In this document: piece after piece, positions 7,981 to 20,053 of the stretch
Numbering within the stretch: position 1 is the stretch's first letter
Layout of the letters: each line of letters begins with the position of its first letter
Source of the DNA: an uncultured bacterium
GTDB taxonomy: Bacteria; Lernaellota; Lernaellaia; Lernaellales; Lernaellaceae
Direction of reading: 5' to 3'
Length of the DNA stretch: 20,208 nucleotides
NCBI GenBank assembly: GCA_964534375.1
Contig: CAZHPN010000112.1
Location: 1-20,208 of the forward strand
The notes under the pieces: generated by a model
Databases searched by the model: none
Seen by the model: only the letters and a program-made list of their open reading frames with translations
What the model was told of the DNA's origin: nothing
Program-made: the position numbers and the translations under genes

Positions 7981-8250
7981 GTCATTCCCGCGGAGAGGCT
8001 GCCCCCGCGAAGGCGGCGGCGGCAATCCAGGATCATCCGTTGCGCCCCTTGCCACGGCGGCTCCGCCCCGTCACACGTCATTCCCGCGGAAGCGGGAATC
8101 CAGGAGCATCACGGCGCCCCCACGATGACACGGCTTCGCCCCTTGAGACGTCATTCCCGCGGAGGCGGGAATCCAGGAGCATCCGTTGCGCCCCCACGAT
8201 GACACGGCGTCGCCCCTTCAGACGTCATTTCCGCGAAGGCGGGAATCCAG
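7981..8250 (+). repeat. Left array of CGTC-type palindromic repeats, 73-74 bp period
   Basis: CGTCATT(C/T)CCGCGRARGCGGGAATCCAG at 8076, 8149 and 8223, plus a disrupted copy at 7981-8030. Confidence 0.9.
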
Positions 8251-8290
8251 ATTCATCACGGCCGCCCCACGTTGGGGCGGCGTCGCATCA

Positions 8291-8587
8291 TCACACGCAC
8301 ACTTCCTCATAAAGGTTGCGCCAATTCGGATTTGTTTTCTCAATCATCTTCATTTTCCACGCGCGATTCGACTTTTTGACTTGTTTCTTGCGCTGAATGG
8401 CGCTGACTGCGTTCGAATGTCTTTCGCAATAAACCAAATCGTGAACAGCATATTTCGACGTGAAGCCGTCGGCGACATTGTTCTTGTGCTGCCAGACGCG
8501 TTGAGCCAAATTCGACGTAACTCCCACGTACAGCGTGCCGTTGCGGCGGCTGGCCATGATGTAGACGTAGAATTCCTACGTCGTCAC
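8291..8587 (-). pseudogene. GIY-YIG nuclease (small Slx1/YhbQ-like type), probably inactivated
   Basis: GGAGA SD, then GTG 8587: MTT*EFYVYIMASRRNGTLYVGVTSNLAQRVWQHK...FTSKYAVHDLVYCE...AIQRKKQVKKSNRAWKMKMIEKTNPNWRNL; in-frame TAG at 8578-8576; family REK motif reads RKK. Confidence 0.8.
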
Positions 8588-8660
8588 GAGTTGTCTCCGC
8601 CCTTTCGACTGCGGAACGGACAATGACATATTTCAGATCGGCGCAAAGATCCGGATGATC

Positions 8661-8848
8661 CTGGATTCCCGCCTCCGCGGGAATGACGTGTAACGGGACG
8701 GCGGCGCGCAATCGTGGGGGACGCCACGATGATCCTGGATTCCTGCCTCCGCGGGAATGACGTCTCAAGGGGCGGCGCCGCGTCGTCGTCGGGCGCAACG
8801 GACGATCCTGGATTCCCGCTTCCGCGGGAATGACGTCTCAAGGGGCGA
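8661..8848 (-). repeat. Right array of the same palindromic repeats, inverted orientation
   Basis: CTGGATTCC(C/T)GCYTCCGCGGGAATGACG at 8661, 8735 and 8808 (periods 74 and 73). Confidence 0.9.
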
Positions 8849-8962
8849 ATCGGCGTGATCGCTGGGAAAACGACGAATGTTTTGCATCGCCAAAGATGCT
8901 CGACAGGCAGTGAATCGCTGCGCCAACGGCGGGAACGTCAGCCGATCCGGCGGGTCGCGCGG

Positions 8963-9004
8963 CAATCCGCAATCCGCAATCCGCAATCCGCAATCCGCAA
9001 TCCG
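8963..9004. repeat. Perfect heptamer tandem (CAATCCG)x6
   Basis: Six exact units counted directly. Confidence 0.95.
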
Positions 9005-10633: not shown

Positions 10634-11629
10634 ATGATCTCCAGCGAGTTGGAAAACCTGGAACGCGAAATTGCGACGCAGGGCGCGTTTGTCGAACGCC
10701 TGCTGACCGAGGTCGGCAAACGCATCGTCGGCCAGCGCGCGATGATCGAGCGGATTCTGATCGCCATGCTTGCCGACGGCCACATTCTGCTCGAAGGCCT
10801 GCCGGGTCTGGCCAAGACGCTGGCGGTCAAGACCTTCGCCGAGGCGATTGCCGCGCAGTTCGCCCGCATCCAGTTCACGCCCGACCTGCTGCCGGCCGAC
10901 CTGATCGGCACGATGATCTACCGCAAGGAAACCGGCGAGTTCGTGCCCAAGCTCGGGCCGCTGTTCGCCAACCTGATCCTCGCCGACGAAATCAACCGCG
11001 CCCCGGCGAAGGTGCAAAGCGCGTTGCTCGAGGCGATGGAAGAGCGGCAGGTGACGCTGGGCGACGCCAGCCACAAGCTGCCCGCCCCGTTCCTCGTCTT
11101 CGCCACCCAGAACCCGATCGAGCAGGAAGGCACGTACCCGCTGCCCGAGGCGCAACGCGACCGCTTCCTGCTGAAGCTGAAGGTCGAATACCCGACCCGC
11201 GAAGAAGAGCGCCTGATCATGGACCGCATCGGCGGCGGCGACCTGGCCAAAATCGACAAGGTCATCACGCCGGCCGACCTGACCGCGACGCGCCAGGTGG
11301 TCCGGCGCGTGCGCGTCGACGAAAAAATCGTGCAATACATCCTCGACCTGGTTTTCGCGAGCCGGTATCCGGACCGCGTCAAAGGCCTGCAGGATTGGGC
11401 GGGGCTGTTCGAATACGGCGCCAGCCCGCGCGCCAGCCTGGCGCTGCTCAACTGCGGCCGCTGCCACGCGTTCCTGCGCGGCCGCGGCTACGTCACGCCG
11501 GAAGACGTGAAAGCGATCGGCCCCGACGTGCTGCGGCACCGCATCATCCCCAGTTACGAGGCCGAGGCCGAGGATAAAACGGTCGAGGATTTGGTGCGCG
11601 CGATCTTCGACAACGTCGAGGTGCCGTAA
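10634..11629 (+). CDS. moxR: MoxR-family AAA+ ATPase
   Basis: HILLEGLPGLAKT (Walker A variant), RIQFTPDLLPADLIG, ILADEINRAPAKVQSALLEAMEE, ATQNPIEQEGTYPLPEAQRDRF, GASPRA and VLRHRI. Confidence 0.95.
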   Translation: MISSELENLEREIATQGAFVERLLTEVGKRIVGQRAMIERILIAMLADGHILLEGLPGLAKTLAVKTFAEAIAAQFARIQFTPDLLPADLIGTMIYRKETGEFVPKLGPLFANLILADEINRAPAKVQSALLEAMEERQVTLGDASHKLPAPFLVFATQNPIEQEGTYPLPEAQRDRFLLKLKVEYPTREEERLIMDRIGGGDLAKIDKVITPADLTATRQVVRRVRVDEKIVQYILDLVFASRYPDRVKGLQDWAGLFEYGASPRASLALLNCGRCHAFLRGRGYVTPEDVKAIGPDVLRHRIIPSYEAEAEDKTVEDLVRAIFDNVEVP

Positions 11630-11641
11630 GGTGTTTGGCGC

Positions 11642-11842
11642 GAATGCGGAATGCGGAACGCGGAATGCGGAATGCGGACCGGCCGGCCGGAAATTCCGCA
11701 TTCGCCATTCGCCATTCGCCATTCGCCGAATCCCGAACCCCGAAACCCGAGACCCGAACCCCGAGTCCCGAAACCCGAGACCCGAATCCCGAGACCCGGA
11801 CTCCGGAACCCGGAACCCGGAACCCGGAACCCGGACCCCGAA
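11642..11842. repeat. Composite heptamer cassette: (GAATGCG)n, core, inverted (CATTCGC)n, then (CCCGRRN)n
   Basis: Read directly in the moxR-DUF58 junction. Confidence 0.9.
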
Positions 11843-11848
11843 CGCCAA

Positions 11849-12727
11849 ATGCTGACCCAAGACGCCATTCGCCGCATTCGCCGCATCGCGATCACCACCC
11901 GCAAAGAGGTGGAGACCGGCTTTTCCGGCGCGTACAGCAGCGTGTTCCGCGGCCGCGGTTCGCAGTTCGACCAGGTGCGCCCGTATCAAGAGGGCGACCC
12001 GATCCGCGACATCGACTGGAACGTCACCGCGCGCACGGGCGAGCCGCACATCAAGGTTTACACCGAGGAGCGCGAACTCACGCTGCTGCTCGTGGTCGAC
12101 GTCAGCGCCTCGGGGATTTTCGGCTCGGTCCGCGCCAAGCGCGAACTGGCCGCCGAGACCGCGGCGATCCTCGCCTTTTCGGCGATCTACTCCGGCGACA
12201 AAGTCGGCCTGCTGCGGTTCACCGACCGCGTCGAGCAGTACGTGCCGCCGCGCAAAGGCACCTCGCACGTCTGGCGCGTGATCCGCGACCTGCTCGCGGG
12301 CACGGCGACCGGCCGCGGCACCAATATCGGCCTGGCGTTGACGCACCTGCGCAAGATCCGCCGGCGGCGCGCGGTCGTCGTGCTGCTCAGCGATTTCCTC
12401 TCGCCGCTCGGCTTCGAACGCGAGTTGCGCGCCGTCGCCGGCCGGCACGACCTAGTGGCGGCGGAGATCGTCGATCCGCTCGATCTCGCGCTGCCCAATG
12501 TGGGCCTGATCGAGGTCGAAGACGCGGAAGACCGGCGGCGGCTGTGGCTGGACACCTCGCACGCCGGCGTGCAGCGGACCTACGCCGATCGCGCGGCGCG
12601 GCGGCGCAAGGCGCTCGCCGACCTCTGCGCGCGCAACGGCGTCGATCTGCTGCCGCTGCGCACCGACGAAGGGGCGGCGCCGGCGCTGACCCGGTTTTTC
12701 GAGACCCGCAAACGGAGGCGCCGGTGA
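11849..12727 (+). CDS. DUF58 family protein (vWA-like, MoxR-associated)
   Basis: GAYSSVFRGRGSQFDQVRPYQEGDPIRDIDWNVTAR, KVYTEERE, VVDVSAS, DKVGL and VVLLSDF; the frame is also open back to ATG 11651. Confidence 0.9.
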   Translation: MLTQDAIRRIRRIAITTRKEVETGFSGAYSSVFRGRGSQFDQVRPYQEGDPIRDIDWNVTARTGEPHIKVYTEERELTLLLVVDVSASGIFGSVRAKRELAAETAAILAFSAIYSGDKVGLLRFTDRVEQYVPPRKGTSHVWRVIRDLLAGTATGRGTNIGLALTHLRKIRRRRAVVVLLSDFLSPLGFERELRAVAGRHDLVAAEIVDPLDLALPNVGLIEVEDAEDRRRLWLDTSHAGVQRTYADRAARRRKALADLCARNGVDLLPLRTDEGAAPALTRFFETRKRRRR

Positions 12728-14118
12728 GAAAGCGGAACACGCCGGCGAGCGAAAATTCCGCGCGGGCCGCGGCCGCGCGGAAAGATAAGCCCGTGGTACG
12801 GGCGCAGGTAGTTAGCCCGGGAATTTATTCCTGGGGTTCGAGCGGTGGTTTTGTTTTGTCCCCCCCAAACTCGCAAAACGGCCGCAGCCGTTTTGCGAGC
12901 TTGGGGGGGACAAAGGCGGGAATCCTCCCGGCGGCCTCCCCAGGAATAAATTCCTGGGCTAATCACCTCCGCCCCTCCGGGGCTTTGAAGAGATTGTCGA
13001 TTTTCTTCGTGCCGGCCGACCGTGCAGGGGCGGGTTCCCGCGCCCAAAAAGATGACGCGCCTGCGGGCGCGACCCCTCCCCAACCCCTCCCCGACGCGGA
13101 GAGGGGCTGTTTTTGGGCGGTAAATGCCGCCCGAATGTGGAAGCCCGGGCTTGCTGCGCTAACCTCCCTCATCATTTGGCTCGTCGCCGCCGCCGCCCAG
13201 GCGTCGCCGATCGCGCTGGGCGTTTCGGTGTCGCCGCGCACGGCGCCGGTCGCGGCGAAGGTCCTCTATACGTTCTACGCCGAATGGCCGGACGGCTGGA
13301 CGGTCACGCCGCCGCGGCTGAAGCCCGAGCAAGACTCGTTCGACGTCGTCAATTGCCGCGAACCGGTTTACGACACTCTCGCTTCGGGCCGGCACCGCCT
13401 ACGGCTGACGTGCGAGTTGGTCATCTTCGACTCCGGACGCGTCGATCTGCCGGCGCTGAAGACCAAGATCGGCGGCCCCGACGGGCTGACCTACGAAGAC
13501 ACGGCCCCCGATCTGCAAGTGGAGGCGATCGCGCCGCTGGTCGGCGACCAGCCGCGGCCGCTCAAGCCGCCGGAGGTCATCCGCCGGAATTGGGCCAAGA
13601 TCGCCCTGGTCGCGCTGGCCATTGCCGCGGCGCTGGCGGCGCTCTCCGCGGCCATCTGGTTCGCGATGCGCGGCTGGAAAAACCGCACGCCGAAAGAGCG
13701 CCGCGCCAAGCCCGCGGTGTACGAGCCGCCGGACGTCCGCGCCCTGCGCCGGCTCGGCGAACCGCTGCTCGACGAGTACGCGTTCAAACAGGATGCGAAT
13801 CGCTACTATACGGAATTGAGCGACATCGTGCGCGAATACCTGGAAGGCCGGTTCGCGGTGCCGGCGCTCGAACGCACCAGCGCCGAAATCGGCGCCGAGA
13901 TCGCGGCCCTCGATTTGCGGGGCCATGACGGCTACCTGCGCGACCTGCTGCGCGTGGCCGACCTCGCCAAGTTCGCCGGCATCGCCGCGGCGTACGAGCG
14001 ATGGTCGACCGATCGCGACAGCGCCCGCCAATTCGTGACCGACACGCGCCCGGTCGCGGTGGCCGCCGCCGTGCCGGACGCCGAACCCGTACCGCCCCCC
14101 GCGGAGGAAGCGCCATGA
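12724..14118 (+). CDS. Conserved bat-operon membrane protein (BatD-like/DUF4381-type) with a repeat-derived N-terminal extension
   Basis: GGAGG SD and GTG overlapping the DUF58 stop (GTGA); signal-like segment after about 140 aa; TM helix; YYTELSDIVREYLEGRF...ALERTSAEI and ADLAKFA; alternative start ATG 13135. Confidence 0.75.
   Translation: MRKRNTPASENSARAAAARKDKPVVRAQVVSPGIYSWGSSGGFVLSPPNSQNGRSRFASLGGTKAGILPAASPGINSWANHLRPSGALKRLSIFFVPADRAGAGSRAQKDDAPAGATPPQPLPDAERGCFWAVNAARMWKPGLAALTSLIIWLVAAAAQASPIALGVSVSPRTAPVAAKVLYTFYAEWPDGWTVTPPRLKPEQDSFDVVNCREPVYDTLASGRHRLRLTCELVIFDSGRVDLPALKTKIGGPDGLTYEDTAPDLQVEAIAPLVGDQPRPLKPPEVIRRNWAKIALVALAIAAALAALSAAIWFAMRGWKNRTPKERRAKPAVYEPPDVRALRRLGEPLLDEYAFKQDANRYYTELSDIVREYLEGRFAVPALERTSAEIGAEIAALDLRGHDGYLRDLLRVADLAKFAGIAAAYERWSTDRDSARQFVTDTRPVAVAAAVPDAEPVPPPAEEAP
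12800..12974. repeat. Nested palindromic element (inverted REP-like pair enclosing a 28-bp hairpin)
   Basis: TTAGCCCGGGAATTTATTCCTGGGG (12812-12836) versus CCCCAGGAATAAATTCCTGGGCTAA (12938-12962); inner hairpin 12855-12914. Confidence 0.9.
13073..13106 (+). repeat. CCCCTCCCC...GGAGAGGGG palindromic repeat, copy 1
   Basis: CCCCTCCCC-GACGC-GGAGAGGGG hairpin; second copy at 20169-20191. Confidence 0.7.
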
Positions 14119-15095
14119 GCCTCGGCCAGCCGTGGTTCTTGCTGCTGCTGCTCGCGCCGGCCGTGGTTTATCTGCTGCGGCGCAAGGGCACGCGCGACGC
14201 CACGGTGCTGGTCGGCGCCGCCGCGGCCTTCGACGGGCTGCCGCGCGGCTGGCGGCAACGCCTGCGGGCCGCGCCGCTGATCCTGCGGCTGGCGGCGCTG
14301 GGCTTCCTGGCGCTGGCCGCGACGCGGCCGATGTCGGAGAAAGTGACCGAGCGCATCACCAGCGAGGGCGTCGACATCATGCTGGCGCTCGACGTTTCCG
14401 GCTCGATGCACGCGCTGGATTTCAACCCGGAAGACCGCATCACCGTGGCGCGGCGCGTCTCGGCCCAGTTCGTCCTTGGCCGGCCCGGCGACCGCGTGGG
14501 CCTTGTGCTCTTCGGCACCGACGCGGTGACGCAGTGCCCGTTGACCGTCGATCACGAGGTGCTCGTGCAACTTATTTCGCAGGCGGAGCCGGGCATGCTG
14601 GGCGACTCGACGGCGATCGGCATGGGGATCGCGGCGGCGGTCAACCGCTTGCGCGACGCCCCGGGCAAAAGCCGGATCATCGTCTTGCTCACCGACGGCG
14701 TGAACAATGCGGGCAAGGTCGACCCGATCACGGCCGCGCGGCTCGCCAAATCGCTGGGCGTCAAGATTTACGCGATCGGCGTCGGCAAGGTCGGGCCGGC
14801 GATGATCCCGGTCAAGGGGCCGTTCGGCACGAAACTGGTGCAGATCCCCGACGAACTCGACGAAAAAACGCTGCGCCAGGTGGCGGCCGACGGCGGCGGC
14901 AAGTACTACCGCGCCACCGACGCCGCGGGCATGGCGCGGATCTTCGCCGAAATCAACGAGATGGAGAAAACCAAGGTCGAGCGGGAAAAGGCCTCGCATT
15001 TTCAGGATAAGTTCGAGCCCGTGTTGTGGGCGGGGTTGGCGTTGCTGCTGCTCGAACTGGGCCTCGCCAACGGCCCGCTGCGGAAGGCGGCGTAA
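14115..15095 (+). CDS. batA: BatA-like vWA domain membrane protein
   Basis: GGAGG SD and ATGA overlap; PWFLLLLL, DIMLALDVSGSM (MIDAS), DRVGLVLF, TAIGMG, IVLLTDGVNNAG and DEKTLRQVA. Confidence 0.9.
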   Translation: MSLGQPWFLLLLLAPAVVYLLRRKGTRDATVLVGAAAAFDGLPRGWRQRLRAAPLILRLAALGFLALAATRPMSEKVTERITSEGVDIMLALDVSGSMHALDFNPEDRITVARRVSAQFVLGRPGDRVGLVLFGTDAVTQCPLTVDHEVLVQLISQAEPGMLGDSTAIGMGIAAAVNRLRDAPGKSRIIVLLTDGVNNAGKVDPITAARLAKSLGVKIYAIGVGKVGPAMIPVKGPFGTKLVQIPDELDEKTLRQVAADGGGKYYRATDAAGMARIFAEINEMEKTKVEREKASHFQDKFEPVLWAGLALLLLELGLANGPLRKAA

Positions 15096-16097
15096 ATGCG
15101 GTTCGCCCATCCCGAAATCCTGTTCTTCCTCTTGCTCGTCCCCGCGTACGGGCTCGCCGCTTGGTTTTCGCGCCGCGTCTCGCGCCGCCGGCTGGCTGCG
15201 CTGCTGCCCGCCGAGGAGCAGCGCACGACCTTGAGCACGGCCAATCCGACCCGCGCGGTCGTGCGCGCCGTGCTGCTGGCGACGGCGCTGATTCTGCTGA
15301 TCTTTGCCGCGGCGCGGCCGCAGTTCGGCTTCGATTTCGTCGAGGTCGAACGCCGCGGCGTCGACGTCGTGCTGGCGATCGACGTCTCCGCGTCGATGCT
15401 GGCGCGCGACGTGGCGCCCGACCGCCTCGGCCAGGCCAAGATCATCGCCGCGCGGCTCGTCGATTCGATGGGCAGCGACCGCGTGGCCGTGCTGCCGTTC
15501 GCCGGCGATTCGGTGCTGCGCTGGCCGTTGTCCTTCGATCACGGCGCGGCGAAAATGCTCATCGAGGCCGCCGACGTGATGTCCGCCGGCCGCCCGGGCA
15601 CCGGCCTGAAAACGGCCGTCGAGGGCGCGCTGAAGCTGTTCGGCCCGGAAGACGCCTACGAAAAGGTGCTGGTGATTTTCTCCGACGGCGAAGACCACCT
15701 CGGCGGGCTGGAAAAGGCCGCGCAGCAGGCGGAAAAAGAGAAGATGATCATTCACACGATCGGCATCGGCGATCCGCACGGCGTCCCGATTCCCAATCCG
15801 GAAGGCGACAAAGACACCTTCAAACGCGACCGTTCCGGCGCCATCATCTATACCCGCCTCGAACCGGAGCCGCTGCAAGTGCTGTCGGCGATCACGCACG
15901 GCCTGTTCGTACAGGCCGGCTACTCGGGCGACGAGGTCAAGAAGATCGCCCACGCGATCCGGGCCATGAAGGGGCGCGATCTCAAATCCAGCCGCGTCGC
16001 ACGGTACCGCGAACGCTATCAGTGGTTCTTGATCCCGGCCGTCGCGCTGCTCGCCATCGAAGGCGGCCTGAGCCGGCGCAAACGGAGGCTGCCATGA
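15096..16097 (+). CDS. batB: BatB-like vWA domain membrane protein
   Basis: MRFAHP, ARPQFG, DVVLAIDVSASMLARDVAPDRL, VIFSDGEDH, IHTIGIG and ERYQWFL. Confidence 0.9.
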   Translation: MRFAHPEILFFLLLVPAYGLAAWFSRRVSRRRLAALLPAEEQRTTLSTANPTRAVVRAVLLATALILLIFAAARPQFGFDFVEVERRGVDVVLAIDVSASMLARDVAPDRLGQAKIIAARLVDSMGSDRVAVLPFAGDSVLRWPLSFDHGAAKMLIEAADVMSAGRPGTGLKTAVEGALKLFGPEDAYEKVLVIFSDGEDHLGGLEKAAQQAEKEKMIIHTIGIGDPHGVPIPNPEGDKDTFKRDRSGAIIYTRLEPEPLQVLSAITHGLFVQAGYSGDEVKKIAHAIRAMKGRDLKSSRVARYRERYQWFLIPAVALLAIEGGLSRRKRRLP

Positions 16098-17071
16098 AAC
16101 GGCGGCAGCGCAATGCGGAATGGCGAATGCCAAATGGCGAATGCCGAATGGCGAATGCCGAATGGCGAATTGGCGCCGCCCGACATTCTCCATTCTCCAT
16201 TCAACATTCGCCATTTGCCGCTTTCATTGTGGTGGTCCTGGCGGCATTGCTGCTCGCGCACGCGGCTTGGGCCGCGCCGAGCATTTACGAGTTGCTGCAG
16301 CAAGGCAACGATCTCTACAAGGCCGGCAAATACAAAGACGCGCTCGCGGCCTATCAGCAGGCGGCGCAACTCGAACCGAACCGCGCCGAGGTGCAAATCG
16401 ACATCGGCAACGCCCTGGTGCAAACCGGCGACGTGCCCGGCGCGATCGCGGCCTATGCCAAGGCGCTGCCGACGGCGGATGAGCCGCTGCGGGCCCGCGC
16501 GCTGTACGACCGCGGCACGGCGCAGATCGCCGCGCAGGACTGGGACGGCGCGATCGCCAGCCTGCGGCGTTCGTTGCGGATCAACCCGAAAGACGAAGAC
16601 GCGAAATACAACCTGCTCTACGCGATGAAGAAGAAACGCGAGAAGAGCGAGCAGCCGCCGGAAGGCGGCAAGGACCAGAAGGACGACAAGGGCGACAAAG
16701 GCGGCGACCAGGACAAGAAGAGCGACGAGGAAAAAGAAAAGCCCAAGGGCAACGACAACAAACAAAACAGCCCCGAGCCGCAGGACAAATCGCAGACGAC
16801 GCCGACCGAGCCGACGCCGATGCAGCCGCCGCCCCAGGGGTCGCCCGAGCCGTCGCAAGAGCAGGCCGCGCAGCAGGAGCAAAGCGACAAAACCCCCGAA
16901 CCCAACGGTCCGGAGAAAGCGCGCCAGCGGCCGGATCAGGAGGCGGCGAACGAGGTCGATCCGACCGTCGCCGCGGCCATTCTCGACGCGCTTCAAAAAG
17001 ACGAGCAACAGGAATTGAAACTGCGCATGCAGCGGGGCAAGGCGAACGTGGATGTCGATAAGGATTGGTGA
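16094..17071 (+). CDS. batC: BatC-like TPR protein with charged low-complexity linker
   Basis: GGAGG SD and ATGA overlap; signal peptide; TPRs (GNDLYKAGKYKDALAAYQQA, DAKYNL); C-terminal AILDAL...DKDW. Confidence 0.85.
   Translation: MKRRQRNAEWRMPNGECRMANAEWRIGAARHSPFSIQHSPFAAFIVVVLAALLLAHAAWAAPSIYELLQQGNDLYKAGKYKDALAAYQQAAQLEPNRAEVQIDIGNALVQTGDVPGAIAAYAKALPTADEPLRARALYDRGTAQIAAQDWDGAIASLRRSLRINPKDEDAKYNLLYAMKKKREKSEQPPEGGKDQKDDKGDKGGDQDKKSDEEKEKPKGNDNKQNSPEPQDKSQTTPTEPTPMQPPPQGSPEPSQEQAAQQEQSDKTPEPNGPEKARQRPDQEAANEVDPTVAAAILDALQKDEQQELKLRMQRGKANVDVDKDW
16112..16216. repeat. Inverted heptamer arrays inside the batC 5' end
   Basis: (GAATGGC/GAATGCC)n followed by (CATTCTC/CATTCGC)n. Confidence 0.85.
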
Positions 17072-19082
17072 GCCGCACCCGTGGGGTTCGGCGAATGGCG
17101 AATGGCGAATGGCGAATGCGGAATTTCCGGCCGGCCGGCCCGCACTCGGCATCCCGCACTCGGCATTCCGCATTCCGCATTCCGCGTTCGGCGTTCCGCA
17201 CTCGGCATTCCGCATTCCGCATTCCGCGTTCGGCATTCCGCATTCCGCATTCCGCATTCCGCATTCTGCAATTGCGCTTGGCGTAACGATTTTGCTCCTG
17301 GCGCTCACGCTGCCCGGCCGCGCGCTGGCGGCCGACGCTCTGCATTTGTCCATCGAGCCGGCGACGGTCGGCGTGGGCGACGACGTGACGGCCACGGTCA
17401 GTGCGGAAAGCAAAACCGCCGGCCAGCCCCATTTGAACGGCATCGACGGCTTCGACGTCGTCGGCACGGTGTCGCAGAGCTCGGTGCAGTTCATCAATTC
17501 GCAGTTTTCCATCAGCCGGCAAACCGTATTCACGCTGCGGGCGCGGCGCGCCGGCCGCTACACAATCGTCGCCGAGGCCGGCGGGGCGCGCTCCAGCCCC
17601 GTCACGGTCGTCGTCGGCGCCGGCGGCGGCCCGGCCGCCCCGCCGCCTCCGCCGCCCAGCGTCCCGCCGCCGGCGTCCGGCCGCGGCGGCGGCGCGGGCC
17701 GGCCGTTTTTCGTCCAGGCCGTGGCGCGACCGACCAATCCGGTCGTCGGACGGCAGGTGATCGTCGAGTACTACCTGCACATCCGCGAAGGCGTGCAGGC
17801 GGAAAAATACGAATTGGCGGGCGTGCCGGAATTCGTCGGCTTCACGCAAACGGAGCTGCCGACCTCGCCGAAGCTCGTTTTCGCCCAAGAGTCGATCGGG
17901 GGCGTGCCGTACCAAACGGCGCTCGTCAAGCGGTTCGCCGTGTTCCCGACGGCAGCCGGCGACCAGACGATCGGCCCGATGGAGATGCGCATCCATTACC
18001 TGAAACGCGACCGCTCGTCGCGGTCGATGGACCCGTTCGGCATGTTCCCGTCGCTGTTGCGCGAACGCGACGTGGCCGAGGTCGAGTCCGAACCGCTGAC
18101 GCTCAACGTTCAGCAGTTGCCCGCGGCCGGCCAGCCGCCCGATTTCGCCGGCGCGGTCGGCCGGCTCGACATCAAAGACGAAGTCGATCGCGCGAACGTG
18201 CCGACCGGCGAGCCATTCACGCTGAAGGTGACCATCGAGGGCGAGGGCGACGTGGAAACCGTCCATCGGCCGAAGCTGGAGCTCAGCCCCAATTTGCACG
18301 TGTACAGCGACAAGGACCGCAGCGAGGTCACCCCCGGCTTCGACAAGGTCACCGGCAAGAAATTTTTCGAGACGATTCTGATCGCGACCGCGCCGGGCGA
18401 TTACCAGATCCCGCCGCTGCGCCTGCCGTATTACGATCCGGAGGCGCGCGAATACAAGGTCGCGACGACGGCGGCGATCGCCGTGCGCGCGTCGGGCGAC
18501 GCCGGGGCCGCGGCGTCGCACTCGCTCGGCGTCATGTCGCGCGAGGCGGTGGAGTTGCGCGGCCGCGATCTGCGTTACATCCATCGCGACAAGCCGGCGC
18601 TGCGGCGCAAGCAGACGCCGCTGGTCGCTTCGACGCTGGTCTGGATCGCGCTCGGCTTGTGGCCGCTGCTGGCCGCGGGCGTGGTGGTTTATCAGGTCCG
18701 CCAGGGGCGGCAGCGGGCGGACCGGCGGACCTACCGCAGCCGGCGCGCGTTCAAAGAGGCGCAACTGCGGCTGCGCGCGGCGCGCCAGGCGATCGACGGC
18801 GCCGACCCGACGCCGTTTTACGCCGAGCTGCACCGCGCGGTCATCGGCTTCATCGCCGACAAGCTCGACGCGGCGGCCCCGGGTCTGGACCGCGCCGATC
18901 TGCTGCGGTCGCTGGCGGGAAAAGGCGTCCGGCCGGAGGCGCTCGAAAACCTCGATGCGCTCTGGAAAGCCGCCGACGCCGTACGCTTCGGCGGCGCCGT
19001 CGCCGACCACGCCGCGCGCCGCGAGGCGCTCGACGACGCCAACCGCCTGCTGGCGGCCCTGGGCGAGGGGCTCTCGTTATGA
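17052..19082 (+). CDS. batD: BatD-like protein (start uncertain)
   Basis: SSVQFIN, VGRQVIVEY, FAGAVG, LKVTIEGEG, PYYDP...YK and DLRYI, TM helix, C-terminal helical domain; in-frame ATGs at 17052 and 17109; coupled GTG 17068 is out of frame. Confidence 0.8.
   Translation: MSIRIGEPHPWGSANGEWRMANAEFPAGRPALGIPHSAFRIPHSAFGVPHSAFRIPHSAFGIPHSAFRIPHSAIALGVTILLLALTLPGRALAADALHLSIEPATVGVGDDVTATVSAESKTAGQPHLNGIDGFDVVGTVSQSSVQFINSQFSISRQTVFTLRARRAGRYTIVAEAGGARSSPVTVVVGAGGGPAAPPPPPPSVPPPASGRGGGAGRPFFVQAVARPTNPVVGRQVIVEYYLHIREGVQAEKYELAGVPEFVGFTQTELPTSPKLVFAQESIGGVPYQTALVKRFAVFPTAAGDQTIGPMEMRIHYLKRDRSSRSMDPFGMFPSLLRERDVAEVESEPLTLNVQQLPAAGQPPDFAGAVGRLDIKDEVDRANVPTGEPFTLKVTIEGEGDVETVHRPKLELSPNLHVYSDKDRSEVTPGFDKVTGKKFFETILIATAPGDYQIPPLRLPYYDPEAREYKVATTAAIAVRASGDAGAAASHSLGVMSREAVELRGRDLRYIHRDKPALRRKQTPLVASTLVWIALGLWPLLAAGVVVYQVRQGRQRADRRTYRSRRAFKEAQLRLRAARQAIDGADPTPFYAELHRAVIGFIADKLDAAAPGLDRADLLRSLAGKGVRPEALENLDALWKAADAVRFGGAVADHAARREALDDANRLLAALGEGLSL
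17087..17270. repeat. Composite heptamer cassette at the batD 5' end
   Basis: (GGCGAAT)x4, core, then a long (CATTCCG/CATTCGG)-type array. Confidence 0.9.
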
Positions 19083-20053
19083 ATGGCGAATGGCGAATGG
19101 CGAATGGCGAATTCCTGCGCCCCATCTCGAGGAATGGCGAATTTTTTCACGCCATCTCCCGCGCACCCCGGACCCCGGAACCCGGACCCCGGACCCCGGA
19201 CCCCGGATCCCGAATCCCGAATCCCAAATCCCGAATCCCGAGCAGTGAGCGCCGCCGGTTATTCGCCATGCGCCATGCGCCATTCGCCATTCTGCGGGTC
19301 GCGTTGGCGGGCGCTGTTCTCGCCGCCGTCCTGCTTGCGGCGCTGCCCGCCGCCGCCGACCCGGCCGCCGACCAATACGATCGCGGCAACCGCTTTTTCG
19401 AGCAGAAAGATTATCTCCAGGCGTTCGAGGCGTATCAGGCGGCGGTCGACGCCGGCGCCGACGACCCCGATCTCTATCTGAACCTGGGCAACGCCGCCTT
19501 CCGGCTCAATCACATCGGCGTCGCGGTCTGGGCCTACGAAATGGGCCTGCGGGTCGCCCCGCGCGACGGCGATCTGCGCTTCAATCTGCGCTATGCCGAA
19601 GCGTTCCAGCGCGACGAATTGCCGAAGGCCGACGAAGTGCTCATTTTGCGCGCCGCCCGCGCTTTGGCCTCGTGGTTTACCGCGGGCGAGGCGACCGGCG
19701 TCGCGGCCGTCGGTTGGCTGGCGCTGGGCGTGGCGGCGATGCTCTGGCCGCGCGCGCGGCGGCGCACCGCGCTGCTCGTCGTCGGCTGCGTGGCGCTGGG
19801 CGTGCTGGTCGCGTTCGGTCCGCTGGCCGGCTGGCGGCTCTACGAGCAATTCGGCATGCGGCAGGCCGTGATCACCGCCGATCAGGCGACGGCCCGCACG
19901 GCGCCCGCGCCCGACGCCGCCGAGGCGTTCACGGCGCACGGCGGCCTGCTGCTGCAAATCATCGACGAACGCGACCAGTATTCGCGCGTGCGCCTGCCCA
20001 ACGGCATGGAAGGCTGGATGGAGAAGACGGCGTATCGGCCGCTGGGACGGTGA
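19079..20053 (+). CDS. batE: BatE-like TPR plus C-terminal SH3-like protein
   Basis: GAGGGG SD and ATGA overlap; GNRFFEQKDY, LYLNLGNAAFR, DLRFNL, two TM helices and RVRLPNGMEGWM. Confidence 0.85.
   Translation: MNGEWRMANGEFLRPISRNGEFFHAISRAPRTPEPGPRTPDPGSRIPNPKSRIPSSERRRLFAMRHAPFAILRVALAGAVLAAVLLAALPAAADPAADQYDRGNRFFEQKDYLQAFEAYQAAVDAGADDPDLYLNLGNAAFRLNHIGVAVWAYEMGLRVAPRDGDLRFNLRYAEAFQRDELPKADEVLILRAARALASWFTAGEATGVAAVGWLALGVAAMLWPRARRRTALLVVGCVALGVLVAFGPLAGWRLYEQFGMRQAVITADQATARTAPAPDAAEAFTAHGGLLLQIIDERDQYSRVRLPNGMEGWMEKTAYRPLGR
19081..19291. repeat. Nested heptamer cassette inside the batE 5' end
   Basis: (GAATGGC)x4, internal (CCCGGAC/CCCGAAT)n at 19167-19241, inverted (GCCATTC/GCCATGC)n at 19261-19291. 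Confidence 0.9.

Follow-up and report, generated by a model that had tools for sequence, protein, structure and literature searches.

The bat (Bacteroides aerotolerance-type) operon of an uncultured bacterium of the family Lernaellaceae carries repeat cassettes of 131-407 nucleotides (nt) at five of its seven gene junctions. The operon lies on a contig of 20,208 nt (C112; hereafter the window), which belongs to the metagenome-assembled genome G000 (6.3 Mb in 381 contigs, 64% G+C). DNA of this organism is present in five sequencing runs, every one of them labelled wetland metagenome, and a BatD homologue from the same family bears the NCBI label Candidatus Lernaella stagnicola. On the + strand, Pfam searches give the gene order moxR-DUF58-g3-batA-batB-batC-batD-batE, in which only g3 is without a Pfam family. 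This is the order known for Bat operons, namely a MoxR ATPase, a DUF58 protein, a small membrane protein, BatA, BatB, BatC (TPR), BatD and BatE (TPR), and it is the same in relatives (Table 1).

Measured from the upstream stop codon to the first start codon behind the cassette, the five occupied junctions span 219 nt (moxR-DUF58), 407 nt (DUF58-g3), 131 nt (batB-batC), 211 nt (batC-batD) and 185 nt (batD-batE). Tandem Repeats Finder and direct reading of the letters identified heptamer tandem arrays at four of them; the fifth, DUF58-g3 (12728-13134), is not heptameric. The two remaining junctions are compact and free of cassettes, with an ATGA overlap between g3 and batA (14115-14118) and a TAA followed directly by the ATG of batB at 15096. 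No period-7 array was found by Tandem Repeats Finder in the gene bodies of this operon. Two statements of an initial annotation of this DNA, that cassettes spare the body of every operon gene and that the two vWA genes batA and batB have none, are therefore borne out.

Table 1. Genes and repeat cassettes of the bat operon (positions in the window). SD, Shine-Dalgarno site; fold z, z score of predicted RNA folding against dinucleotide shuffles; a slash marks a putative signal-peptidase site.
Feature	Positions	Strand	Evidence and remarks
moxR-type AAA ATPase, first gene of the operon	10634..11629	+	Pfam AAA_3 9e-63
Cassette 1, moxR stop to DUF58 ATG	11630..11848	+	Tandem Repeats Finder; fold z = -4.5
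DUF58 gene, ATG 11849 (MLTQDAIRRIRR...)	11849..12727	+	Pfam DUF58 1e-73; start common to orthologues
Cassette 2, behind ancestral GTGA start 12724 (SD GGAGG)	12724..13134	+	407-nt mosaic of dispersed palindromic repeats; fold z = -9.7
g3, exported or membrane protein of no Pfam family	13135..14118	+	ATG 13135 leads into a normal signal peptide, MWKPGLAALTSLIIWLVAAAAQA/SP
batA, BatA N-terminal domain from residue 1 and VWA, no cassette	14115..15095	+	Pfam
batB, BatA N-terminal domain and VWA, no cassette	15096..16097	+	Pfam
batC 5' end: SD GGAGG, ATGA start, MKRRQR, then cassette 3 at 16112-16215	16094..16228	+	fold z = -3.7
batC core (TPR)	16229..17071	+	Pfam; sole post-cassette start GTG 16229
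batD 5' end: ancestral ATG 17052 (MSIRIG) overlapping the batC end, cassette 4 at 17083-17277	17052..17282	+	fold z = -0.2
batD core	17283..19082	+	Pfam BatD 1e-25; only TTG 17292 in frame after the cassette
batE 5' end: ATGA start 19079, cassette 5 at 19081-19292	19079..19292	+	fold z = -0.2
batE (TPR)	19268..20053	+	Pfam; ATG 19268 leads into a normal signal peptide, MRHAPFAILRVALAGAVLAAVLLAALPAAA/DP

The heptamer cassettes differ from each other in their units. Cassette 1 contains 5.3 copies of GAATGCG (11642-11678), a mirror array of 4.1 copies of CATTCGC (11699-11727) and 16.7 copies of a CCGAAAC-type unit (11726-11842); an additional ATG in the DUF58 frame lies at 11651. Cassette 3 is composed of a GAATGGC/GAATGCC arm, a loop and a CATTCTC/CATTCGC arm, and its positions 16118-16215 form one of the mirrored pairs that recur in the genome. 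In cassette 4, 4.1 copies of GGCGAAT, with an in-frame ATG at 17109 inside this first arm, are followed by 18.7 copies of CCGCATT. Cassette 5 joins four arrays (GAATGGC, 4.6 copies; ACCCCGG, 6.9; CCCGAAT, 5.7; ATTCGCC, 4.6), and ATG 19268 lies within the last of them. The main units of the window (GAATGCG, GAATGGC, CCGCATT) are without a GGG tract, which is present only in CGGGATT/CCGGGTT-type arrays. Cassette 2 contains nested inverted arms at 12787-12974, which make up a 188-nt palindrome, and a CCCCTCCCC/GGAGAGGGG element near 13066-13108; its repeats have about 10-20 genomic copies each by BLAST. It also includes a match to the Acido-Lenti-1 RNA motif (Rfam RF01687) at 12939-12984, which covers the full 46-position model and scores 46.2 bits at a cut-off of 37. 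Acido-Lenti-1 is itself a dispersed repeat in G000, often paired or clustered, with at least 14 copies over the cut-off and at least 37 at E<=0.001 among the 150 of 1373 candidates that were scored.

Predicted RNA folding is far better than that of dinucleotide shuffles at three of the five occupied junctions (z = -4.5, -9.7 and -3.7), and no better than shuffles at batC-batD and batD-batE (z = -0.2 each). The initial description of hairpin-forming cassettes of roughly 100-400 nt at five of seven junctions thus stands as regards number and length, with hairpin formation predicted at three of the five. No terminator or promoter consensus was found on the + strand of the cassettes, save one weak 6-pair stem at 17272-17286.

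Empty sites for these cassettes are found in relatives, as had been suggested as a check. The bat operons of eight related genomes, six of the same family (G001-G006) and two of the same class (G010 and G015), are compact at 41 of 42 junctions, with the projected start between -34 and +38 nt from the upstream stop, typically in an ATGA or GTGA overlap preceded by GGAGG. The exception is the batD-batE junction of G006, at which an independent cassette built from other units (CCTCAAG, ACCCGGA) is in frame with an ATG just past the stop and is followed by no start codon. The orthologous N-termini are likewise uniform. In g3, M/V-R-R and an h-region begin at a GTGA/ATGA overlap; BatC has M-K-R and then directly the h-region, and BatE M-K-R and an h-region; BatD has M-x-x-[RW]-x-[RK]-[TI]-G-S and an h-region, from a start about 20 nt before the batC stop, and this N-terminus is free of repeats in seven of seven database homologues fetched (from nine hits). 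DUF58 proteins begin with M-L-T-[EA] behind a spacer of 19-28 nt with an SD site.

Against this background, all four exported genes of the window (g3, batC, batD and batE) have the ancestral start and n-region 5' of the cassette and the hydrophobic core 3' of it, in the same frame. The retained starts are GTGA 12724 (MRKR...), ATGA 16094 (MKRRQR...), ATG 17052 (MSIRIG...) and ATGA 19079, of which those of g3, batC and batE overlap the upstream stop. Continuity of frame through the cassette had been claimed initially for these three genes, correctly, and denied for batD, because GTGA 17068 was taken as the batD start; from ATG 17052 batD is also in frame. For DUF58, whose cassette occupies the space from the stop to the conserved ATG 11849, no question of frame arises.

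The cassettes are stop-free, as originally noted, and for most of them this means little. The heptamer cassettes of the window are essentially open in all three frames: stops in other frames are limited to one late in the +2 frame of batE and one after the array in the +1 frame of batD, the others lying at or before the upstream stop codon, so that stop-free status is uninformative for these arrays. Only the g3 junction is selectively open, with no stop in the gene frame and 6 and 4 in the others. With a conservative empirical baseline of 0.118 for an intergenic stretch of 408 nt to be open in a given frame, and 1/3 for each frame relation, the chance that four of four ancestral starts are in frame is about 0.004-0.012, before a discount for a locus that was picked because it looked in frame; the figure of about 1/27 first given for the in-frame cases was mis-specified.

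The start codons available behind the cassettes are of uneven quality. In batD there is neither ATG nor GTG after the cassette, and TTG 17292 would leave an h-region of only 7 residues. The nearest ATG, 17109, is that of the public gene call P0001 (17109-19082), which places 57 repeat-encoded residues at the deposited N-terminus. Since batD is without a usable start after the cassette, part of the cassette would have to be translated. The only post-cassette start of batC, GTG 16229, has no SD site and would give a signal peptide without a charged n-region. Judged by these starts, batD would need its cassette to be read through, batC would probably need the same, and g3 and batE could do without it. 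The purine-rich arm of the arrays (GAATGNG) offers an ATG in every frame.

The heptamer arrays of the operon belong to a family that is dispersed throughout the genome. G000 contains 736 period-7 arrays of at least 3.5 copies, compared with 78 of period 8, 89 of period 5 and 17 of period 10, and units such as AAAAAGG, AACAGTG, AATGCGG, AATCCCG, AATGGCG, AATCCGC and AAGTCAG coexist in it. The cassettes range from 22 to 385 nt and their units differ from site to site. Positions relative to genes were taken from a gene set made with our own crude codon-usage caller (4929 genes, 85% coding, 15% intergenic). By this measure 546 of 763 cassettes are intergenic, in 15% of the genome, and 651 cassettes with A/T-containing units are distributed over 364 co-directional gaps, 117 convergent and 95 divergent gaps, 56 contig ends and 19 gene bodies. 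Within co-directional gaps the cassettes are anchored at the stop codon: 150 of the 364 begin between -16 and +14 nt from the upstream stop, whereas only 34 end equally near the next start, and the median distances are 22.5 nt to the upstream stop and 100.5 nt to the next start. The expansion is lineage-specific. A run of three GAATGCG units, with one mismatch allowed, has 107 matches in G000, compared with between 0 and 14 in any one of 30 relatives. For three CCCGAAT units the counts are 121 in G000, 11 in G006 and zero in each of the other 29. Orthologous DNA from G001-G005, about 255 kb in total, contains a single marginal array.

Where arrays are arranged as mirrored pairs, the purine-rich arm precedes the pyrimidine-rich one in 27 of 27 cases and in all gene contexts, a uniform polarity that points to the mechanism of formation and not to selection at individual sites. 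Selection of an ATG-first polarity for translation was considered and rejected, since the purine arm also comes first between convergent and between divergent genes. At loci such as C27:13355-13638, C17:33878-33932, C330:1731-2019 and C95:20365-20458, an array of the AACAGTG family already starts at the stop codon of the upstream gene or ahead of it. The TGA and the last codons before it (..GAA CAG TGA) are repeat units themselves, so that an array of this family supplies a stop in any frame. In the window, short heptamer arrays are also present outside the operon, at 1344-1363 (CAGAAGA, 2.9 copies, starting 2 nt past the stop at 1342) and, upstream of + strand genes, at 342-373 (TCGCTGT, 4.6 copies) and 8962-9004 (GCAATCC, 6.1 copies). 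Longer units of 73-74 nt (core GTCATTCCCGCGGAGGCGGGAATCCAGGA) form two arrays, with about three repeats in each, at 8013-8297 and 8652-8876, which are inverted relative to each other, 81% complementary, and flank a small open reading frame (ORF) on the - strand (8291-8557); the unit gives 22 BLAST hits on 15 contigs. Finally, the 56 contigs of G000 that end in heptamer cassettes, and a batD gene split over two contig ends in G004 (C52/C55), suggest that heptamer repeats may fragment the assemblies of G000 and its relatives.

Arrays of this family are demonstrably tolerated within translated sequence elsewhere in G000, as judged from the genes that contain them; these cases establish occurrence, not frequency. 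A DnaE-type DNA polymerase III alpha subunit (C42:28316-28417, L074; Pfam PHP, DNA_pol3_alpha, finger, HHH_6 and OB) has an in-frame insert of about 45 residues in its HHH_6 region, 34 of which derive from 14.6 copies of CGGGATT (PRIPNPESRIPNPEP...). The insert is missing in three of three same-family relatives with both flanks, in which the gene is continuous. Likewise, a PD-(D/E)XK nuclease/UvrD_C protein (C54:4843-4972, L075) contains an in-frame heptamer-array insert (DCGLRIADCGLP...SRIPNPESR...) that is missing in five of five relatives. The same repeat family is thus found between genes and in frame within conserved ORFs that lack it in relatives.

Several N-termini resemble those of the bat genes. 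At C55:17295 an SD site (AAGGAG) and a GTG precede a 101-nt array and the first transmembrane segment, with no other start; the pseudopilin at C38:17756 has a 128-nt cassette in its leader, ahead of G/FTLVE; and two lipoproteins have a cassette between their start and an h-region with lipobox, the start overlapping the upstream stop in both, as an ATGA at C12:23137 (MKVR) and as an ATG within TGATG at C2:71569 (MQGR). The cytoplasmic CoA-transferase at C9:25183 keeps an ATGA and SD site upstream of a 74-nt in-frame cassette. Relatives are informative for only some of these and similar loci. At C30:23788, C9:32769 and C2:71569 they have spacers and not overlaps, so that the ancestral start is uninformative; C16:14272 found no orthologous match in five relatives, and C50:14040 matched only non-syntenic paralogues. 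Out-of-frame SD starts near the stop at C11, C5:46483, C52 and C57 were discarded as spurious, conserved ATG starts being present behind those cassettes. At C256:2283-2375 (L077), C51:2640-2725 (L076) and C36:24895-25026, stop-free arrays join two apparent genes or domains in one ORF; radical-SAM/SPASM is followed by a sulfatase in one, and a Rossmann-type N-terminus stands directly past the array in another. Such ORFs may be gene fusions by cassettes that removed or bridged a stop codon.

The initial annotation had proposed that selfish repeats use cleavable signal peptides as safe harbours, and had named random frames and no bias towards secreted N-termini among genome-wide copies as the outcome that would speak against this. 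Both are what the genome presents. Of the cassettes that lie at the 5' ends of genes (284), the gene frame is stop-free in 232, the +1 frame in 234 and the +2 frame in 225, with all three open in 199. At 101 stop-anchored co-directional junctions the corresponding numbers open across the cassette are 48, 48 and 45; a start near the upstream stop is present in 23, 15 and 20, and one that also has an SD site in 5, 4 and 3. Hydrophobic, export-like N-termini are not enriched, with 104 of 281 genes with a 5' cassette compared with 1834 of 4821 for all genes (p = 0.75). Avoidance of the stop-bearing orientation was also rejected, the stop-bearing unit AACAGTG reading in sense at 27 co-directional junctions and in antisense at 15. 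The anchoring of cassettes at stops and not at starts, and the 117 of 651 in convergent gaps, also speak against the proposal. As a rule, an upstream stop is followed by the cassette and then by an SD site and an ATG. Given that no bias of frame, secretion or orientation exists genome-wide, the apparent safe harbour reflects survivorship and not targeting, and the association with gene starts in the bat operon arises because its cistrons overlapped. What stands of the proposal is local: the bat cassettes do lie between a retained start with its n-region and the h-region, with the frame kept, and this is no general rule.

On balance, and judging from sequence comparison, it is probable that stop-anchored heptamer arrays entered the overlapping cistrons of the bat operon and survive there as in-frame extensions of n-regions. 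The cassettes are local copies of the lineage-specific, genome-wide family of heptamer simple-sequence repeats (SSRs), many of them mirrored with a loop between the purine-rich and the pyrimidine-rich arm, and other small palindromes are present at one junction. Because cassettes accumulate immediately 3' of stop codons and the ancestral bat cistrons overlapped by ATGA or GTGA, an insertion just past the stop would fall within codons 2-12 of g3, batC, batD and batE; in the case of DUF58 it would come to lie after the stop and ahead of the ATG. Retained copies would be those that do not halt the next gene: they contain no stop, their frame agrees with that of the ancestral SD-led coupled start, and the purine arm adds an ATG in every frame. 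Their site is the n-region of cleavable signal peptides, and the 45-137 residues added there may be tolerated and, presumably, removed by signal peptidase on export; the putative cleavage sites (AWA/AP, ALA/AD, AAA/DP and AQA/SP) were read by the -3,-1 rule rather than by a prediction tool. The bat pattern would then be the product of a filter, in which, for want of intergenic space, an insertion persists only if it leaves the following cistron translatable and lies in a tolerant N-terminal segment. In batA and batB the conserved membrane domain begins at residue 1, so that an insertion there would probably be costly.

Several observations weigh against translated n-region extensions. A non-coding role would be the more natural reading of the structured Acido-Lenti-1 motif in the DUF58-g3 junction. 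Across the genome, cassettes show no preference for an open gene frame over the +1 and +2 frames, and tgt (C17:33878) and C158:1004 start 3-4 nt past cassettes whose gene frame is closed. The peptidase_MA-like gene at C27:42650 keeps its ancestral ATGA and is out of frame with it; its own frame opens with a TGA, followed by an ATG in the first GAATGCG unit, and initiation must therefore lie inside the array. ATG 13135 of g3, after the cassette, and ATG 19268 of batE, at its end, both lead into textbook signal peptides. An SD site precedes 574 of 1161 unambiguous starts (49%; 52 of 1161 at a control position), so that, with about half of the starts in G000 lacking one, restarts without an SD site are plausible. 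Every genome-wide positional count depends on the crude gene caller, and the in-frame tally is biased, the locus having been picked for looking in frame and the extra cases coming in part from lists that required an upstream start. Many of these points fit cassettes that are untranslated intercistronic spacers, each gene restarting at ATG 11849, ATG 13135, GTG 16229, TTG 17292 or ATG 17109, and ATG 19268; the continuity of frame with the old starts would then be coincidence, aided by arrays open in all frames. The lack of frame bias, the typical arrangement with SD site and ATG behind the cassette, the starts of tgt and C158:1004, the low proportion of SD sites and the good ATGs of g3 and batE all agree with this, as does the ancestral ATG retained behind the cassette by DUF58 and by C55:26981. 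It is nevertheless a possibility that we doubt, since the h-region of batD would shrink to 7 residues from TTG 17292, or a start at ATG 17109 would already entail the translation of 57 repeat codons; batC would be without a charged n-region; ancestral starts are in frame in four of four cases, with the g3 junction selectively open; and, in several other genes, no start codon follows the cassette.

Two regulatory explanations fit less well. If the arrays were contingency switches for phase variation, gain or loss of one 7-nt unit would shift the frame and set a Bat subunit on or off, or its level. A unit length that is no multiple of 3, perfect runs of 4-5 units, and the position of the repeats between the start codon and the mature protein in batC, batD and batE, comparable with the opa genes as described in the excerpted source (PMC3960869), would suit such a role, and the arrays at the ends of 56 contigs suggest length heterogeneity or difficulty of assembly. 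It seems very unlikely, however, because the arrays are imperfect, with 80-93% matches over the long ones, and the same arrays abound in 3'-3' gaps, in which no switching is possible. Other frames are open across the batC and batD arrays and the 5' arm has an ATG in every frame, so that a frame shift would usually be buffered and would not turn the gene off. The only other assembly found, one metagenome contig, is identical over 8926 nt; the scan otherwise returned five distant loci. The cassettes could instead be RNA structures under selection (for example to stabilise the upstream cistron, to direct processing, or to act as roadblocks in the form of G-quadruplexes or hairpins) that set the relative translation of Bat subunits, as the initial annotation had also considered; coding continuity would then be incidental. 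The folding of three junctions far beyond shuffles, the sRNA-like Rfam motif in the g3 junction and the stop anchoring, which is reminiscent of REP-type 3' stabilisers and of the Xanthomonas and Nostoc heptamer repeats, mostly transcribed according to the available part of that report (PMC4692102), are in keeping with such elements. Yet two of the five junctions fold no better than shuffles, relatives have the same operon without any cassettes, + strand terminator and promoter signals are absent, and the units vary between junctions, which makes this explanation improbable as well.

A more speculative extension of the n-region reading, which we rate as rather unlikely, would make the repeats 'frame-proof' invaders of compact operons. 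With a purine arm in front that has an ATG in all three frames, and a stop-free pyrimidine arm behind it, a stop-anchored hairpin in the first codons of an overlapped cistron would never silence it, irrespective of the frame of insertion and of units gained or lost; the disposable N-terminal peptide would be cut off with Sec, lipoprotein or prepilin leaders, and slippage by one unit would toggle between a strong coupled SD start and weak array-internal ATGs, turning the arrays into heritable dimmers of Bat stoichiometry and not into on/off switches.

Heptamer arrays are abundant in scattered bacterial lineages and still unexplained, and the bat operon of G000 offers a natural experiment, with five junctions invaded in one lineage and clean empty sites in eight relatives. 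It reveals where the arrays land, directly past stop codons. Without intergenic space such an array lands in the start of the next gene, which may survive by reading it as a throw-away leader. For annotation, the start calls of repeat-rich metagenome genomes become ambiguous, as with the public BatD call inside an array. The operon may also inform how much extra n-region Sec, lipoprotein and prepilin leaders can tolerate, and it suggests a route by which selfish or neutral repeats could create new N-terminal and linker sequence.

The STRR heptanucleotide repeats of cyanobacteria are abundant, lineage-specific and intergenic. Comparable heptameric SSRs have been described in Xanthomonas (GGGAATC) and Nostoc (GGGGA[C/T]T), with 2 to about 26 copies per array (Rehm et al., 2015, PMC4692102). 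These are genome-wide and mostly intergenic, lie between co-oriented ORFs and within 50 bp of stops, and form convergent inverted pairs, as far as the excerpted report describes them (PMC4692102). The G000 family shares with them an excess of period 7 over other non-triplet periods, dispersal, an intergenic position near stops and inverted pairs, purine-first in 27 of 27 cases in G000. It differs in that many units coexist, most of them presumably unable to form G-quadruplexes, and in the arrays between a retained start and a signal-peptide core, or in frame, which do not feature in that excerpt (PMC4692102). The TAACTGA direct repeats of marine Beggiatoaceae are also abundant intergenic heptamers, possibly regulatory (PMC4679880, in part). 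They and the STRR repeats have in common with G000 that heptamer direct repeats are lineage-specific and patchy across distant phyla. TAACTGA, however, carries stops and, unlike the bat arrays, could not be read through. Acido-Lenti-1 (RF01687) is represented in the window by a copy of what in G000 is a dispersed repeat, inside an ORF that leads into g3.

The repeat family, the insertion of palindromes in frame and the non-triplet repeat in a leader region are each already known. A literature search returned no report of heptamer arrays between a retained coupled start and a signal-peptide core, read as a disposable n-region, repeatedly in one operon with orthologous empty sites. The closest precedents for the second and third of these features are the Rickettsia palindromic elements (RPEs) and the Neisseria opa genes, both considered here from partial texts. 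RPEs are normally intergenic palindromes that are also found in frame in unrelated housekeeping genes, to which they add a peptide (PMC10969869); the in-frame copies in the DnaE-type polymerase, the PD-(D/E)XK/UvrD_C protein and the N-termini of G000 are similar. Unlike RPEs, which have a fixed length of about 150 bp and a conserved peptide, the G000 inserts are variable-length arrays of interchangeable 7-nt units, and no terminal inverted repeats or target duplications were recognised at them. In opa, CTCTT pentamers in the leader-peptide region are translated and removed with the leader (PMC3960869), which parallels the non-triplet tandem repeats of G000 in the regions predicted to encode cleaved leader peptides. 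The opa repeats are perfect, encode the hydrophobic core and are proven on/off switches, whereas those of G000 are imperfect, are placed in the n-region, leave every frame open and have spare ATGs and no known length variation.

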